Part shown: positions 23,277-58,697 of the stretch, piece after piece
Layout: each line of letters begins with the position of its first letter
Position numbering within the stretch: the first letter of the stretch is position 1
Source: Minisyncoccota bacterium
Lineage (GTDB): Bacteria > Patescibacteriota > Minisyncoccia > Phycocordibacterales > UBA1006
Length of the DNA: 64,000 bases
Direction of reading: 5' to 3'
Assembly (NCBI GenBank): GCA_028697455.1
Contig: JAQVEZ010000001.1
Location: 67,902 to 131,901, forward strand
Notes under the pieces: generated by a model
Told to the model about the DNA's origin: nothing
Database searches by the model: none
What the model saw: only the letters and a program-made list of their open reading frames with translations
Made by a program: the position numbers and the translations under genes

Positions 23277-24167
23277 TTAATCTTCAATGAAAAAATCTTC
23301 ATCAATTTCTTTTATAGAAAAAGTTTCCTTAATTTGAACTCCTAAATTATATTTAATCATTAGGTCTACTAATTTATCACCATTGATTAATATAATTTTA
23401 TGATTTCTTGCATCCCTTACTTTTTCTAAGGCTGCCTTATCAAAATCTGAAGTAGTAACAAAAATTCCTTTTGAGACATCACCAGACATTGCTCCAATAA
23501 AATTACGGATTTCTTTTTCTCCCACAAGGTTTGCTGTATATCTTTTTGCCTGAGTATAAATTCTCTCAACCCCTAAAGCATCTTGATTGATAATCCCATC
23601 AATTCCACCATCCCCAGATTTTTTTGTTTCTTGAAAATCTCCATAACCCATTTTTTGAAAAAGTTTTAAAATTATCTTTTCAAAATAATATGGATTTGAA
23701 ACTTTTAATTTTTCCAATAATTCAATTTTTAAATTCTCTTCAATATCAGCATATCCAACTTCAATCATTTCTTGAGATGACAAATCAGTGACTTTTATAT
23801 TTTCGTTATTTTCAGATTTTTTATTTTTTTGATATTTTTGAAAATCGAAATCATTTTGTATATATTCTTTTGTTAAATTTATCCCCTCCTTAAGAATATT
23901 TAATCCTTTATCGGTAATTTTTACATATCCTCTTTCTGGATAATCAACCATTTTTGCTACACGTAATTTTGATTTTGCGAAATGAATACGATTAAGTAAT
24001 GTATTGTCACCATTTTTTGGATTAACTCTATTTAAAACTTCTTCTGGCAAATGTGAATAAAAAGTATCTCTTACTTTTTCTTCAAGGTCTTTTCTGTGTA
24101 AAGTTTCTCCATTACTCAAAATCTTAAGTACTGGGATATATATTTCGTGGTATTTTGGCATTTCCAT
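23277..24167 (-). CDS. mrr: Mrr-like type IV (modification-dependent) restriction endonuclease
   Basis: An Mrr_N winged helix (PKYHEIYIPVLKIL...NRIHFAKSKL). An Mrr_cat domain (YYFEKIILKLFQKMGY...SGDGGIDGII...YTQAKRY...KGIFVTTSDF...LVDLMIKYNLGV) that aligns closely with E. coli Mrr. The track ORF begins at a TTG codon inside the T-box terminator, so the first ATG (MEMPKYHEI) is preferred. Confidence 0.85.
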   Translation of the reverse strand: MEMPKYHEIYIPVLKILSNGETLHRKDLEEKVRDTFYSHLPEEVLNRVNPKNGDNTLLNRIHFAKSKLRVAKMVDYPERGYVKITDKGLNILKEGINLTKEYIQNDFDFQKYQKNKKSENNENIKVTDLSSQEMIEVGYADIEENLKIELLEKLKVSNPYYFEKIILKLFQKMGYGDFQETKKSGDGGIDGIINQDALGVERIYTQAKRYTANLVGEKEIRNFIGAMSGDVSKGIFVTTSDFDKAALEKVRDARNHKIILINGDKLVDLMIKYNLGVQIKETFSIKEIDEDFFIED

Positions 24168-24189
24168 AATATTTTTATATTCTATTTGC

Positions 24190-24395
24190 AAACAAAAAAT
24201 CGTCCGCAATCGATTAACTTATAATCTCTTGCAGGGACGATTTTGGATAACCGCGGTGCCACCCTGATTCCTGATGTGTATCAAGCGCTCTTTATTATTA
24301 GTCCAAAAATATCCTTAGACTTAATTTTTCACCTCAGCTGTGTCAAAGCGTCGTTGGTACATAAAATATAACAAAAATAAGCAAAAAAGAAAAGA
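24190..24395 (-). promoter_or_regulatory. T-box riboswitch leader (likely Asp-specific) upstream of mrr-aspS
   Basis: On the minus strand, AGGGUGGCACCGCGG at 24251-24265 matches the T-box consensus AGGGUGGNACCGCG exactly. The variable position C would pair with G73 of tRNA-Asp. A terminator helix AAAATCGTCC(CTGCAA)...(TTGC)GGACGATTTT with a U-tract follows at 24196-24244. Upstream there is a short stem I-like helix containing GGACUAA (GAC is an Asp codon). Confidence 0.55.
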
Positions 24396-49120: not shown

Positions 49121-50599
49121 ATGTATACTATCTTTATGAAAAAGAGCGATGAGCGACTAGAAAAACTCTATGAATCTATTCGTGTTAAAACAACCTTAAA
49201 AGAGAAAAAACAAATTGAAAAAGCTTTTTTCTTTTCTCAAAAAGCTCATGAGGGGCAAACGAGAGCAAATGGTGACCCTTATTTTTCTCATGTCTATGCA
49301 ACAGCATTGAATCTTGCTGATTTTGGACTCGACGCTACAACAATTATTGCAGGGCTCCTCCATGACACCATCGAAGATACTTCTGTTTCACCAGAAGACG
49401 TTCAAAAAGAATTTGGAGAAGAAATTCTCTTTCTTGTTAACGGAGTGACAAAGCTTGGAACACTGCGCTATCACGGAAAAGAACGCCACGTTGAATCTCT
49501 TCGAAAATTTTTCATCGCAACAGCAAAAGATTTTCGTATTGTTGTTATCAAACTTGCAGACAGACTTCACAATATTCAGACCTTACAGTTTGTCAGACAA
49601 GACAAACAAAAAAGAATAGCCGTAGAAACGATTGAGATTTATGCCCCGCTTGCTTATCGACTCGGAATGGGACATGTCGTTGGTATGCTTCAAGATGCTG
49701 CTTTTCCTTTTGCATATCCAGAAGAAGCAAAAATGATTGATGACCTTCTCAAACAAAAGAAAAAGCTCAGTGAAAAGTATCTTGAAAAAGTTTGGAGATC
49801 TCTCAAGTCTGAAATGGCAAAACACCAAATCAAAGACATTACTACCCACCAGAGGGTAAAGGGTCGCTATAGCCTCTGGAAAAAACTCCAAAAGAAAAAA
49901 ATGGATATCGAACAGGTATATGACATTGTTGCTCTTAGAGTTATTGTCCCTACTGTCGATGATTGTTACAGAGTTCTTGGAATTATTCACTCAATGTGGA
50001 GACCTCTCCCGGGAAGAATAAAAGACTACATCGCGCTCCCTAAAATAAACGGTTATCAATCTCTTCATACAACGATTTTTACAGGAGATGGGGGTATTGC
50101 TGAAATTCAAATTAGAACCCCAGAGATGCATGCCTTTGCCGAATATGGACTTGCGGCGCACTATCTTTATAAAACAGGAAGAAAAAAGAGCGCCGATGCA
50201 CGATCTCTTGATTGGCTTCAACAACTCAAAGAACTCCAAGAAAATGAAAAGTCAGCAACATTCTTAAAAAATTTAAAAACTGATTTTTTCCAAGACAGGA
50301 TCTTCGTCTTTACTCCCTTGGGAGATGTTATTAATCTTCCTCAAGGAGCCTCTGCTCTTGATTTTGCTTATTCAATTCACACCGAAATTGGAAATACTGC
50401 TCAAGCAGCTATTATCAATGGAAAAAATTCAGCACTCAAAACTCAACTTGAAAATGGAGATATCGTTGAGATCCAAACCAACAAAAAAACAACACCTTCT
50501 TCAAAATGGCTCCCTTATGTAAAAACAACCCTCGCAAGAAAACACATAGAGAAATATACCAAAGAAAATAGTCTTTGGAATAAATTCTTTAAAAACTAA
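49121..50599 (+). CDS. rel: short bifunctional (p)ppGpp synthetase/hydrolase (HD, synthetase and TGS domains; no ACT domain)
   Basis: HD motif LHDTIEDT, the synthetase region RVKGRYSLWKKL...YQSLHTTI, and the TGS domain IFVFTPLGDVINLPQGASALDFAYSIH. Confidence 0.9.
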   Translation: MYTIFMKKSDERLEKLYESIRVKTTLKEKKQIEKAFFFSQKAHEGQTRANGDPYFSHVYATALNLADFGLDATTIIAGLLHDTIEDTSVSPEDVQKEFGEEILFLVNGVTKLGTLRYHGKERHVESLRKFFIATAKDFRIVVIKLADRLHNIQTLQFVRQDKQKRIAVETIEIYAPLAYRLGMGHVVGMLQDAAFPFAYPEEAKMIDDLLKQKKKLSEKYLEKVWRSLKSEMAKHQIKDITTHQRVKGRYSLWKKLQKKKMDIEQVYDIVALRVIVPTVDDCYRVLGIIHSMWRPLPGRIKDYIALPKINGYQSLHTTIFTGDGGIAEIQIRTPEMHAFAEYGLAAHYLYKTGRKKSADARSLDWLQQLKELQENEKSATFLKNLKTDFFQDRIFVFTPLGDVINLPQGASALDFAYSIHTEIGNTAQAAIINGKNSALKTQLENGDIVEIQTNKKTTPSSKWLPYVKTTLARKHIEKYTKENSLWNKFFKN

Positions 50600-56751: not shown

Positions 56752-57009
56752 TTATTTTATATATTTTTTGAGAAAAAAAGAAAACACAACAAAAACAACC
56801 CCCGCTACAAGTGTATATAAAGGAATTGATATTCCATGAAGGGTAAAAGAACCCCAGGTCAGAAGATCGTAGAGAGCTCCAAAAAAAATAATTTCAAAAT
56901 AGTTATTATATTTATAGAGAATAAGAAAAATACTTCCCAGTATTACAAGTGGGAAAAATCCCCAAATAATAAAAGCAAAAAATAATAAAAAAAAGAAAAG
57001 ACGAGACAT
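56752..57009 (-). CDS. small three-TM membrane protein (possibly a minimal MreD-like protein)
   Basis: An 85-aa hydrophobic ORF immediately upstream of the PBP2 gene. Confidence 0.35.
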   Translation of the reverse strand: MSRLFFFLLFFAFIIWGFFPLVILGSIFLILYKYNNYFEIIFFGALYDLLTWGSFTLHGISIPLYTLVAGVVFVVFSFFLKKYIK

Positions 57010-57057: not shown

Positions 57058-57906
57058 CTACAGAGAAACAAATTCTGGATGGATAAGTTCATGGACTTCT
57101 TTCACAAGTTTCTTTGCTGTTCTCTCAGAAACTCCATAATCTTTTTCAAAATCTTTTGCTTCAAGATAATAAAGGTCTTGCACAAGAACCACATCATTGA
57201 GTGCGAGTTTTTTAAGTAATGATTGTGTCATTGAAGGAACAACGGTAACAGGATAAAGCTTTTTTTCGCGAACTATTTTTTTGAGATTAATAAATTTAGG
57301 ATAATCCCACCCCATCAACTGTAGGTCTCGGTGCTCTATATAATTGAGCGAGTTCTGAGTGAACTGAGTGTTCGTAACCATCCACATATAATACTCCCGA
57401 GTATCCCCATTGAGCTGAGCTTTTTTTCGAATATCAACAAGGCGAGCATCAGCATACATAACCTTATCGATATGTGTTTTTGTACGAAAATCATTTTTGT
57501 ATTTTGCTTCAACAAGGAAGACAACATTCCCTTTTTGAGCCATAACATCAATTTCATGTTCAACAGCCTCCCCATGGAGATACACATTTTTTTGAGAAAA
57601 ATATCCCATCTTTCTAAAAAGCTCAGAAACAAAGTGCTCGAAAAGAAATCCTGAAGGCCCCAAGGAACTTAGACCTCTCTCAAGAGAGTATAAGGCTGCA
57701 AGTTCAGGATCAATAGGTTTTAAGTATTTTCGTGTAATATTAAAAATCTTCTCAGTTGATGTTCCTGAGCTTATTTTTTCTGAGACGATATCACAAACCT
57801 GTGTTGCGAGTGATGTTGGGGCTCCAGCAGCGACAATAGAGTTACAAAGCTTTTCTGCAGAAAAAGGTTCTTGTGATCCATTTTTTTTAATGATTTTTTT
57901 ACTCAT
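57058..57906 (-). CDS. ATP-cone domain fused to a restriction-endonuclease-like PD-(D/E)xK nuclease domain
   Basis: An N-terminal ATP-cone (KIIKKNGSQEPFSAEKLCNSIVAAGA...). An Mrr_cat-like block (FLFEHFVSELFRKMGYF...HEIDVMAQKGNVVFLVEAKYK) with the D...EAK catalytic pattern. Confidence 0.7.
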   Translation of the reverse strand: MSKKIIKKNGSQEPFSAEKLCNSIVAAGAPTSLATQVCDIVSEKISSGTSTEKIFNITRKYLKPIDPELAALYSLERGLSSLGPSGFLFEHFVSELFRKMGYFSQKNVYLHGEAVEHEIDVMAQKGNVVFLVEAKYKNDFRTKTHIDKVMYADARLVDIRKKAQLNGDTREYYMWMVTNTQFTQNSLNYIEHRDLQLMGWDYPKFINLKKIVREKKLYPVTVVPSMTQSLLKKLALNDVVLVQDLYYLEAKDFEKDYGVSERTAKKLVKEVHELIHPEFVSL

Positions 57907-57971
57907 GATGATAAAAATAGCTTATGCTTCTATTCTATCAAAAAAAATCAATTTCTGATATACTAGCCAGC

Positions 57972-58697
57972 ATGTCTGATAAAAATGAAAAAAAAGAATC
58001 TCTAGAAGAAATCATAGATTCGTGTGTTAATAATAGCTCAAACGCCCTTGAATCAAGACTCTGTATTATCAACAAAGAACTTAAAAGAGGGTTTGATTTA
58101 CTCAGCAAGCATCCCAAGTCAGTAACCTTCTTTGGCTCAGCTCGATTAGCTCCAGAAACTGATCCATATAAAAAAGCAAAGAGTCTCTCTGAAAAAATTG
58201 CAAACGAGGGGTACTCTGTTATCACCGGAGGAGGGTTCGGCATTATGGCTGCGGCAAGCGAAGGTGCACATCAATCAAGCAAGGGAACATCAGTAGGAAT
58301 CAATATCCAGCTTCCCTTCGAACAAACTATCAACCCCTTTCTTGATGAATCAATGGAATTCCATCATTTCTTCTCGCGAAAACTTATCCTCTCATACTCT
58401 GCCGAAACTTATATTTTCTTCCCTGGAGGCTTTGGAACCCTTGATGAACTTTTTGAAATTCTTACTCTCAAACAAACAGGTAAAATGCCCAATGTTCCTA
58501 TTATCCTCTTTGGAAAAGAATTTTGGTCACCTCTTGAAGATTTCTTTAAAAAAGTTTTGCTCAAGAATGGTCAAAAGGTTATCTCTGACGAAGATGTTGA
58601 TATCTATACGATAACCGATTCAGAAGAAGAGGTTCTCGAAATTGTCAAAAGCGCTCCTATACGAACCGAAGTTTCTACAACCATGGGACTTGGTTAA
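57972..58697 (+). CDS. LOG family protein (cytokinin riboside 5'-monophosphate phosphoribohydrolase-like / TIGR00730)
   Basis: VTFFGSARLAP...VITGGGFGIMAAASEGA...FPGGFGTLDELFEILTLKQTGK, the PGGxGTxxE motif. Confidence 0.85.
   Translation: MSDKNEKKESLEEIIDSCVNNSSNALESRLCIINKELKRGFDLLSKHPKSVTFFGSARLAPETDPYKKAKSLSEKIANEGYSVITGGGFGIMAAASEGAHQSSKGTSVGINIQLPFEQTINPFLDESMEFHHFFSRKLILSYSAETYIFFPGGFGTLDELFEILTLKQTGKMPNVPIILFGKEFWSPLEDFFKKVLLKNGQKVISDEDVDIYTITDSEEEVLEIVKSAPIRTEVSTTMGLG

Follow-up and report, generated by a model that had tools for sequence, protein, structure and literature searches.

The window analysed here is a stretch of 64,000 nucleotides from a Minisyncoccota bacterium (contig JAQVEZ010000001.1), and the subject of this report is a gene on its minus strand at 57058–57906. 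The open reading frame (ORF) begins with ATG and encodes a protein of 282 residues, for which we use the working name ACN. Pfam recognizes three domains in it, an ATP-cone, a PD-(D/E)xK nuclease domain and an (HhH)2-like (helix–hairpin–helix) module, and homologs match it over its full length. We are confident of the molecular description taken alone, namely that ACN would be an active, probably adenine-nucleotide-binding nuclease of the AF1548 type. The role that we put forward is an evenly balanced judgement: ACN may be an adenine-nucleotide-gated endonuclease which starts a turnover of nucleic acid that feeds enzymes splitting nucleoside monophosphates (NMPs). Turnover is the simplest reading because three different NMP-splitting enzymes adjoin ACN in different lineages and because a second nuclease accompanies it in the largest branch of the family.

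Domain architecture and conserved residues of ACN

In the Pfam search the ATP-cone (PF03477) covers residues 4–75 (57682–57897, minus strand; 34.8 bits compared with a gathering score of 25.8, E = 2.5e-8), the Mrr_cat-type PD-(D/E)xK nuclease domain (PF04471) covers residues 86–198 (57313–57651, minus strand; 30.7 bits, cutoff 21) and AF1548-like_C (PF22357) covers residues 218–275 (57082–57255, minus strand; 30.9 bits, cutoff 23.9). A sequence-only reading made before this analysis had named the first two domains and had taken the protein for a nucleotide-sensing nuclease. Both domains were found above their gathering scores, and these calls lend support to the idea built on them. The cone, which that reading had placed in the N-terminal 60 residues, is present but extends over about 75–80 residues, and the C-terminal 100 residues or so that had been left unassigned are accounted for by PF22357, an (HhH)2-like domain with a core of about 60 residues. 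Residues 86–275 match the crystal structure of AF1548 (PDB entry 1y88) in a phmmer search of the PDB (E = 2.3e-20), and the C-terminus can thus be taken as part of a known two-domain nuclease architecture. Judged from the sequence, the element that ACN adds to this architecture is the ATP-cone.

Other assignments received little or no score. Pfam gave no match to Mrr_N, ERCC4 or Hjc (PF01870) in ACN, no model matched in the NCBIfam scan, and the YraN models of NCBIfam reached 15–17 bits, far under their cutoffs of 111–124. PADLOC returned matches to CARF_PDDEXK and Csx1 models at E of about 1e-4 or weaker. Those to CARF_PDDEXK cover residues 40–151 and 86–150 and are centred on the nuclease region; a CARF sensor domain was not found, the N-terminus being assigned to the ATP-cone by Pfam.

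An AlphaFold2 model of ACN, built on 29 homologs, has a mean predicted local distance difference test score (pLDDT) of 90.3 and a predicted TM-score of 0.81. Its closest match in the PDB according to Foldseek is AF1548 (E = 1.5e-14, TM-score 0.82 by target length, 2.8 Å), and further matches of the nuclease domain are MspJI, Can2, EndoMS/NucS, McrC and Hjc. All of the strands and helices of the PD-(D/E)xK core (α-β-β-β-α-β) are present in the model. The N-terminal region consists of strands 4–6 and 12–14 and helices 17–26, 31–44, 51–65 and 67–79, which corresponds to the β-hairpin lid and four-helix cone that define the ATP-cone fold, and it superposes on the ATP-cones of NrdR (PDB entries 7p37, 9fxk and 9fvr) and NrdB (5olk) with root-mean-square deviations (r.m.s.d.s) of 1.7–2.3 Å over 81–86 residues. 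When the C-terminal 87 residues were modelled alone (pLDDT 84.6), Foldseek again returned 1y88 first, followed by the N-terminal (HhH)2 domains of RadA/Rad51 (r.m.s.d. 1.7–1.9 Å over 55–61 residues); the C-terminal domain of NusA is another match. The E values of the RadA/Rad51 and NusA matches are weak, so that these constitute evidence at the level of fold only. The model suggests that the tail is probably a helix–hairpin–helix-type module which binds nucleic acid non-specifically.

The D(x)nEAK signature that had been pointed out from the sequence is D120…E133-A134-K135 (57502–57549, minus strand; the translation reads EIDVMAQKGNVVFLVEAK), and it is invariant in all clades. Together with E90 on helix 1 of the nuclease domain (57637–57639, minus strand), H117 and E118, these residues are among those invariant in 29 Patescibacteria homologs. 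In an alignment of 16 sequences from Patescibacteria, DPANN archaea, Bacteroidota and one Chlamydiota plasmid copy, E90, E118, D120, E133 and K135 are still invariant. D120, E133 and K135 correspond to the predicted catalytic residues D38, E51 and K53 of AF1548. A degenerate nuclease would not be expected to retain these five residues.

Residues of the cone were compared with the nucleotide contacts of Escherichia coli NrdR. In that protein Lys53, Glu59 and Lys65 cover the adenine, Val51, Phe61, Leu66 and Ile108 form a hydrophobic pocket, N6 is read by the carbonyl of Pro60 and the γ-phosphate is touched by Ser54 and Ser105 (bioRxiv 10.1101/2025.03.28.645925). An hhalign alignment of the N-terminal profile of the family pairs I5, K7, E13, P14, F15, K19, L20, T51 and I54 of ACN with V51, K53, E59, P60, F61, K65, L66, S105 and I108 of NrdR, respectively. 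The NrdR sequence used was one that we take to be that of the E. coli protein, and all of the residues named in the NrdR study fall at the same numbers in it. Over the 16-sequence alignment K7, G10, K19, T51, L62 and Y73 are invariant, and E13 is kept in the Patescibacteria branch only. Since the NrdR contact residues align and these six positions do not vary, binding of an adenine nucleotide by the ACN cone appears likely. The cone has diverged from that of NrdR (hhalign probability 45%), and a profile of the cone region searched against PDB sequences gave spurious methionine-aminopeptidase matches, with NrdR appearing only at E = 0.43; for this reason the assignment is based on Pfam, fold and hhalign.

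We also note two cysteines on adjacent cone helices, Cys38 (57793–57795) and Cys21 (57844–57846), neither of which varies among the 29 Patescibacteria homologs; they could form a disulfide or metal site peculiar to that clade. We considered and rejected a family-wide switch based on redox state or metal binding, as both residues are absent from the archaeal and Bacteroidota members and from the member at locus L068.

Distribution and gene neighbourhoods of the family

Far from being a rare fusion, ACN is a typical representative of a family which is very large, catalogued and uncharacterised; the novelty, if the proposal is true, would lie in the mechanism and the pathway. With ACN as the query 225 clusters were retrieved, nearly all of 274–290 residues, with 42–62% identity in Patescibacteria. 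When 1.84 billion representative proteins were searched with a profile, 1,349 matched (498 at E ≤ 1e-30), and 147 of the best 150 representative clusters are full length including the cone (about 275–290 residues). Among GTDB species genomes the family occurs in Patescibacteria of the Paceibacteria type (Campbell-, Nomura- and Wolfebacteria, among others) and in Aenigmatarchaeota, the latter with 30–35% identity over the full length. An archaeal member used as the query gave 1,134 clusters. A tblastn search of plasmids returned homologs of full length from Pontibacter actiniarum and Criblamydia sequanensis, and the Pontibacter homolog as the query gave at least 7,522 significant clusters (clustered at 90% identity), the organisms named among its best matches being Pontibacter, Adhaeribacter, Sporocytophaga, Flavobacterium, Cyclobacterium and Saprospiraceae, all of which are Bacteroidota. 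The plasmid copies and these mostly Bacteroidota clusters rule out a distribution confined to the candidate phyla radiation (CPR) and DPANN. They also dispose of the suggestion that the architecture is uncommon, as the members number in the thousands and come from several phyla. No homolog was found in 50,697 phage records.

The earlier statement that no member of the family is characterised agrees with our literature searches, which found none; for AF1548, the closest solved structure, nuclease function is likewise a prediction. Databases label members 'ATP cone domain-containing protein', 'restriction endonuclease', 'ATPase' or 'Holliday junction resolvase'. The literature searches found no experimental basis for these labels, and the JGI label 'Holliday junction resolvase' rests on homology only. 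For thousands of genes the last three labels probably give a false impression. Nor was any paper found in the literature searched that links an ATP-cone to a nuclease or endonuclease, or to AMP phosphorylase.

Some individual loci deserve mention. The copy from Candidatus Microsyncoccus archaeolyticus PMX.50 (locus L086, 6001–6822) groups in a neighbour-joining tree with those of L084, L079 and L080, beside the Aenigmatarchaeota clade and not within the main Paceibacteria clade. The name of the organism hints at an archaeal association, and the placement may reflect an inter-domain transfer. This is also the only CPR or DPANN locus with a β-CASP gene within 6 kb. Two contigs of the metagenome-assembled genome (MAG) HKST-UBA45 (L008 and L009) carry one ACN gene each in the arrangement MscL-LOG<>ACN, and the two proteins each share 62% identity with that of the window; strain heterogeneity or a mixed bin is probably the cause, and not a real duplication. 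A contig labelled Crocinitomicaceae (L015) has the complete Patescibacteria-type synteny MscL-LOG<>ACN...PBP2-GreA-LysS, one labelled Flavobacteriaceae (L057) carries an ACN that groups with the Patescibacteria copies in the tree, and L076 bears an Actinomycetota label. These three are possible cases of mis-binned contigs in public MAGs.

In the Bacteroidota-type branch, on the Pontibacter actiniarum and Criblamydia sequanensis plasmids, ACN leads the same tight four-gene cluster, in which it is followed by an 'MBL fold metallo-hydrolase', a 'thymidine phosphorylase family protein' and a 'ribose-phosphate pyrophosphokinase'. The first of these partners is a β-CASP nuclease with the RNA-specificity domain RMMBL (Beta-Casp, 117 bits; RMMBL, 68.6 bits), whose best relatives in NCBIfam are aCPSF1 and Cas14, with a weak match to Xnuc_lig_assoc as well. 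The second exceeds the archaeal model TIGR02645 (589–602 bits compared with 434.6) and falls slightly under the cutoff of the AMP-phosphorylase equivalog AMP_phos (480–506 bits compared with 535), and the third passes the ribose-phosphate diphosphokinase model PRK07199. Genes for phosphoketolase, glycogen phosphorylase and acetate kinase border the cluster in Criblamydia. Among eight more contigs the full cluster is present in L092 and L095, followed there by genes for PPK2 and a P-type ATPase; L093 has the pair of ACN and β-CASP only and the other five have different neighbours.

A larger sample, examined by targeted tblastn, comprised 80 metagenomic loci of this branch, of which 43 have at least 4.5 kb of sequence downstream of ACN. 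The β-CASP gene lies downstream of ACN and in the same direction at 38 of the 80 loci and at 29 of the 43, in most cases with a gap of −1 to about 70 nucleotides. The phosphorylase and the ribose-phosphate diphosphokinase (PRPP synthetase, where PRPP is phosphoribosyl pyrophosphate) were found at 15 and 13 of the 43, respectively. Over all 80 loci a universal stress protein (Usp) gene occurs at 25, mostly upstream, a P-type ATPase gene at 18 and PPK2 at six. Neither the ten Bacteroidota-type loci with annotated genes nor the targeted search of the 80 revealed DNA methyltransferase or defence genes. With Usp, PPK2, a P-type ATPase and glycolytic enzymes among its neighbours, ACN in Bacteroidota may operate under starvation or energy stress.

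In six loci of this branch (L092, L095, L104, L122, L138 and L159) a longer co-directional island recurs, in the order GAPDH-like protein, SDF transporter, 2-hydroxyacid dehydrogenase, Usp, ACN, β-CASP, AMP-phosphorylase-like protein, PRPP synthetase, a conserved protein of 229 residues with a weak DUF3108-like match, PPK2 and P-type cation ATPase. The island looks like a gene cluster for energy stress that has not been described.

For Patescibacteria and DPANN, 150 immediate neighbours at about 76 GTDB loci were scanned with Pfam. LOG is the commonest (15 of the 150), followed by FKBP and RsmI-type methylase (seven each), HAD (five) and DsbA-like proteins (four); no DNA methyltransferase or defence family is among the commonest neighbour families or clusters. 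Adjacency to LOG appears in several places of the neighbour-joining tree and in three arrangements: divergent in the clade of the window and in L025 and L037, ACN followed by LOG with an overlap of eight nucleotides in L060, and LOG followed by ACN with an overlap of one nucleotide in L068. The LOG proteins of these four loci all exceed the TIGR00730 cutoff. With three arrangements, two of them operonic, and LOG being one gene among several hundred, inherited synteny alone is hard to credit, by a rough estimate which is not a tree-aware test. The association goes beyond the divergent pairing that had been described for the window, since distant relatives have LOG in operons on either side of ACN. 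A gene for a YfbR-like 5'-deoxynucleotidase lies directly 5' of ACN in L065 and L066. Apart from LOG, the partners from the Bacteroidota-type branch do not recur at the Patescibacteria and DPANN loci. A link to thioredoxin or DsbA was rejected, as DsbA-like and thioredoxin-reductase-like neighbours do not extend beyond single clades, and we took them for synteny.

In the window the LOG-family gene (TIGR00730) lies on the plus strand at 57972–58697; its longest ORF would begin at 57924. The protein scores 126.8 bits with TIGR00730 (cutoff 96.35) and 98.8 bits with PF03641, and its translation contains 'PGGFGTLDE' and 'GGGFGIM', which are instances of the motifs PGGxGTxxE and GGGxGxM. The divergence from LOG that had been reported is real, while the gap of 17 nucleotides given with it (57907–57923) holds only for the longest ORF and is otherwise 65 nucleotides. 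We favour the start at 57972, and with it the 65-nucleotide spacer (57907–57971), because a 241-residue gene call on a 98%-identical contig corresponds to it and because −10-like boxes near both start codons are conserved. These boxes, of the type TATACT/TATAAT, lie 6–10 nucleotides 5' of the ATG codons of both ACN and LOG in an alignment of the window with eight related loci (L009–L018), and they suggest back-to-back promoters giving mRNAs that may be leaderless or have very short leaders. A promoter scan picked out a minus-strand site at 57941–57914 (TTGATA, a 16-nucleotide spacer and TATTTT). The number of sites in the scan was not above that in shuffled sequence, and we have discarded it as evidence; only the conservation of the boxes across loci is suggestive.

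The window resembles a reduced Patescibacteria chromosome, with cell-wall genes, tRNA synthetases, F1Fo ATP synthase, ParB and RelA/SpoT, and its G+C content of 36% shows no local deviation. ACN is co-directional with an 85-residue membrane ORF, PBP2, GreA and LysS and is divergent from LOG, which is followed by MscL. The closest clade (54–63% identity) keeps the order MscL-LOG<>ACN...PBP2-GreA-LysS, with glutamate dehydrogenase or other genes inserted 3' of ACN, and ACN lies among housekeeping genes on contigs of 0.6–0.7 Mb. Identities to the window within the clade are 56–63% for ACN, 56–64% for PBP2, 57–66% for GreA and 64–73% for LysS, and this similar divergence indicates that ACN has been inherited vertically rather than as a mobile gene. 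ACN had also been placed at the head of a gene string formed by an MreD-like protein, PBP2, greA and lysS. This arrangement proved to be a matter of clade synteny only, and we rejected a functional tie to it: glutamate dehydrogenase, MurA or DsbA genes are inserted in relatives, and distant members of the family lack the string altogether.

Three other features of the window may be recorded. A canonical Mrr of 310 residues is encoded on the minus strand at 23277–24209 (Mrr_N, 70.6 bits; Mrr_cat, 117.6 bits), adjoining an Asp/Asn-type tRNA synthetase gene, and is a separate, classical enzyme like those of type IV. The 85-residue hydrophobic ORF (56752–57009, minus strand) has no Pfam match; an ORF of about 89 residues is conserved in eight related loci, directly 5' of PBP2 where the flank reaches it, and the position of the window ORF fits MreD, as a candidate identity only. 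A RelA/SpoT homolog (HD_4, RelA_SpoT and TGS domains) is encoded on the plus strand at 49121–50599. The LOG-family enzyme PpnN of E. coli responds to (p)ppGpp, and alarmone control of the LOG enzyme in the window is conceivable.

Proposed role and alternative explanations

In the mechanism that we propose, the N-terminal ATP-cone would bind ATP and/or dATP, and binding would alter the oligomeric state of ACN so as to switch the nuclease on or off, by analogy with ribonucleotide reductase (RNR) and NrdR. The (HhH)2-like domain would hold the nucleic-acid substrate without sequence specificity while ACN, as a cytoplasmic endonuclease, makes a regulated first cut in the polymer. The products, trimmed exonucleolytically to 5'-mononucleotides, would then be split by the neighbouring enzymes and enter NMP catabolism or salvage, and through the cone the cut would depend on the adenine-nucleotide pool. 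LOG converts an NMP to the base and ribose 5-phosphate, AMP phosphorylase converts an NMP and phosphate to the base and ribose 1,5-bisphosphate, and YfbR releases phosphate from a deoxynucleoside monophosphate to leave the deoxynucleoside. In the window and in related Patescibacteria the splitting step would be that of LOG; in the Bacteroidota-type branch, including the Chlamydiota plasmid copy, the β-CASP nuclease, the AMP-phosphorylase-like enzyme and PRPP synthetase would act downstream in the pathway.

Several points weigh against this proposal. No biochemistry of any member, AF1548 included, is reported in the literature searched. The nucleotide-related evidence from the neighbours in the window consists of one divergent LOG gene, and at most Patescibacteria and DPANN loci no nucleotide-metabolism neighbour was seen. 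The partners differ between branches, and a shared role is an extrapolation, as is the transfer of the role from the Bacteroidota-type branch to the window gene. In the cone, position 8, where the canonical hairpin has its second basic residue, varies within the family, hhalign gave no counterpart in ACN of Tyr131, which discriminates ATP from dATP in NrdR, and selectivity between the two nucleotides is not readable from the sequence. The indications of substrate are divided, with the fold and the (HhH)2 module favouring DNA and RMMBL, LOG and AMP phosphorylase favouring RNA or ribonucleotides. Finally, the pair of ACN and β-CASP nuclease could serve DNA repair.

Of the alternatives, this last deserves the most attention, although we think it unlikely. 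ACN would be a structure-specific nuclease of repair or recombination, acting on junctions, flaps or forks in the manner of XPF/Mus81/Hef or of Hjc/NucS, with the cone coupling cutting to the ATP or dATP pool so that precursors are available for resynthesis. The order of a nuclease followed by an (HhH)2-like domain fits this explanation, as do the Foldseek likeness to EndoMS/NucS, Hjc and McrC and the housekeeping-like conservation of ACN in reduced genomes. The superfamily of the β-CASP partner includes DNA-repair exonucleases, to which the weak Xnuc_lig_assoc match may be added, and some members carry the homology-based Holliday junction resolvase label. However, over about 170 loci neither the most frequent neighbour families and clusters nor the targeted tblastn of the Bacteroidota-type loci included a recurrent gene of repair or recombination. 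The partners that do recur are enzymes that split NMPs or serve in salvage, the β-CASP partner has the RNA-specificity domain, and the window protein matches neither ERCC4 nor Hjc in Pfam.

Less probable again is that ACN is a stress-responsive endoribonuclease which works with the β-CASP RNase in the processing or decay of mRNA or rRNA under low ATP, and not in nucleotide supply. The closeness of the ACN and β-CASP/RMMBL genes and the presence of Usp directly upstream at 25 of the 80 loci would suit such a function; Can2, one of the fold matches, is among the PD-(D/E)xK enzymes that cut RNA. Against it, the AMP-phosphorylase-like enzyme, PRPP synthetase and PPK2 encoded in the same operons, and LOG and YfbR in Patescibacteria, point to the use of mononucleotides; (HhH)2 domains usually bind duplex DNA, and nearly all Patescibacteria and DPANN loci are without a β-CASP partner.

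The sequence-only reading had offered two roles, defence effector or turnover enzyme. The gene contexts fit turnover, and we regard defence, whether as an Mrr-like type IV restriction nuclease or as an abortive-infection effector triggered by a phage-induced change in ATP or dATP, as quite improbable. Membership of the Mrr_cat family, the weak PADLOC matches, the Can2/Card1-like logic of a sensor joined to a PD-(D/E)xK nuclease and the two plasmid-borne homologs could be cited in its favour. The PADLOC matches are at the level of noise, however, and ACN lacks Mrr_N, whereas the canonical Mrr lies elsewhere in the window. No DNA methyltransferase or known defence family was seen next to ACN in the window, among the commonest neighbour families and clusters or in the targeted tblastn of the Bacteroidota-type loci, the G+C content is flat, synteny is kept with a divergence similar to that of the housekeeping neighbours, phage homologs were not found, and the plasmid copies lie within metabolic operons. 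The context of ACN as a whole points to nucleotide catabolism and away from defence.

The idea that ACN is a non-catalytic, nucleotide-responsive DNA-binding regulator of neighbours such as LOG, an NrdR analogue with a degenerate nuclease fold and HhH, would match the NrdR design of an ATP-cone with a DNA-binding output and the 65-nucleotide divergent promoter region that ACN shares with LOG, but we consider it very improbable given that E90, D120, E133 and K135 are invariant in bacteria and archaea, that distant relatives have ACN in operons with overlapping reading frames, as is typical of enzyme partners, and that no repeated operator-like motif turned up, no search having been aimed at one.

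The proposal of an adenine-nucleotide-gated turnover nuclease can be taken further, more tentatively, in a form that we think has the lesser chance of being correct. The ACN family would be the gatekeeper of an undescribed, widespread route from nucleic acid to ribose phosphate and base, opening RNA or DNA when the adenine pool signals starvation, with the β-CASP nuclease, AMP-phosphorylase-like enzyme and PRPP synthetase as its partners in Bacteroidota and Chlamydiota and LOG in Patescibacteria. The ATP-cones characterised so far are, to our knowledge, confined to two settings, the allosteric control of ribonucleotide reductases and that of the repressor NrdR. If the proposal is true, ACN would as far as we know be the first nuclease under ATP-cone control; the mechanism would be extended from the synthesis of DNA precursors to their recovery from polymers. 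Free-living bacteria and the ultra-small symbionts of the CPR and DPANN would then have a salvage or energy module in common. Patescibacteria and DPANN are generally described as dependent on salvaged nucleotides, and for them a gated nuclease together with LOG would supply a missing upstream step of salvage. The conserved operons make the hypothesis testable in cultivable hosts, among them Pontibacter, Cyclobacterium and Sporocytophaga.

Comparison with known systems

AF1548 from Archaeoglobus fulgidus (PDB entry 1y88; Mrr_cat and AF1548-like_C) is like ACN in its nuclease domain, its C-terminal helical domain, the order of the two and the positions of the D/E-x-K residues. Residues 16–196 of the crystallised chain of 199 residues align with residues 86–275 of ACN, and the chain thus shows no ATP-cone. 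AF1548 is itself functionally uncharacterised and is predicted only to be a restriction-like nuclease. The ATP-cones of NrdR and of the ribonucleotide reductases NrdA, NrdB and NrdD have the same fold as the cone of ACN, in which the counterparts of the E. coli NrdR contact residues are conserved, and oligomerisation dependent on ATP or dATP is by analogy likely to be common to them. The output differs, being a nuclease in ACN, a Zn-ribbon DNA binder in NrdR and the reductase in RNR, and the sequence similarity is low.

Fusions of a sensor to a nuclease have been described for CARF and SAVED effectors. Can2 and Card1, the ancillary nucleases of type III CRISPR systems that combine CARF with a PD-(D/E)xK domain, have the nuclease fold of ACN and the same logic of an N-terminal sensor and a C-terminal nuclease; their ligand is cyclic oligoadenylate, whereas the sensor of ACN is an ATP-cone, the presumed ligand is ATP or dATP and the context is not one of CRISPR or defence. 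The type IV restriction endonuclease Mrr has its catalytic domain in the same Pfam family, Mrr_cat, as ACN. ACN differs from it in having no Mrr_N, in its lower Mrr_cat score (30.7 bits compared with 117.6 for the Mrr at 23277–24209) and in its metabolic or housekeeping context. XPF, Mus81 and Hef have a nuclease of restriction-endonuclease fold followed by (HhH)2, an order also found in ACN, but with no ERCC4 match and no repair context in ACN the likeness is one of layout only.

With regard to pathways, the neighbours of ACN include enzymes of the types found in the archaeal AMP-phosphorylase/ribose-1,5-bisphosphate/Form III RuBisCO salvage pathway (TIGR02645) and among the LOG/PpnN nucleosidases (TIGR00730), and neither RuBisCO nor ribose-1,5-bisphosphate isomerase was seen next to ACN. 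The AMP salvage pathway as described contains no nuclease, and ACN is tied to it by gene neighbourhood only.

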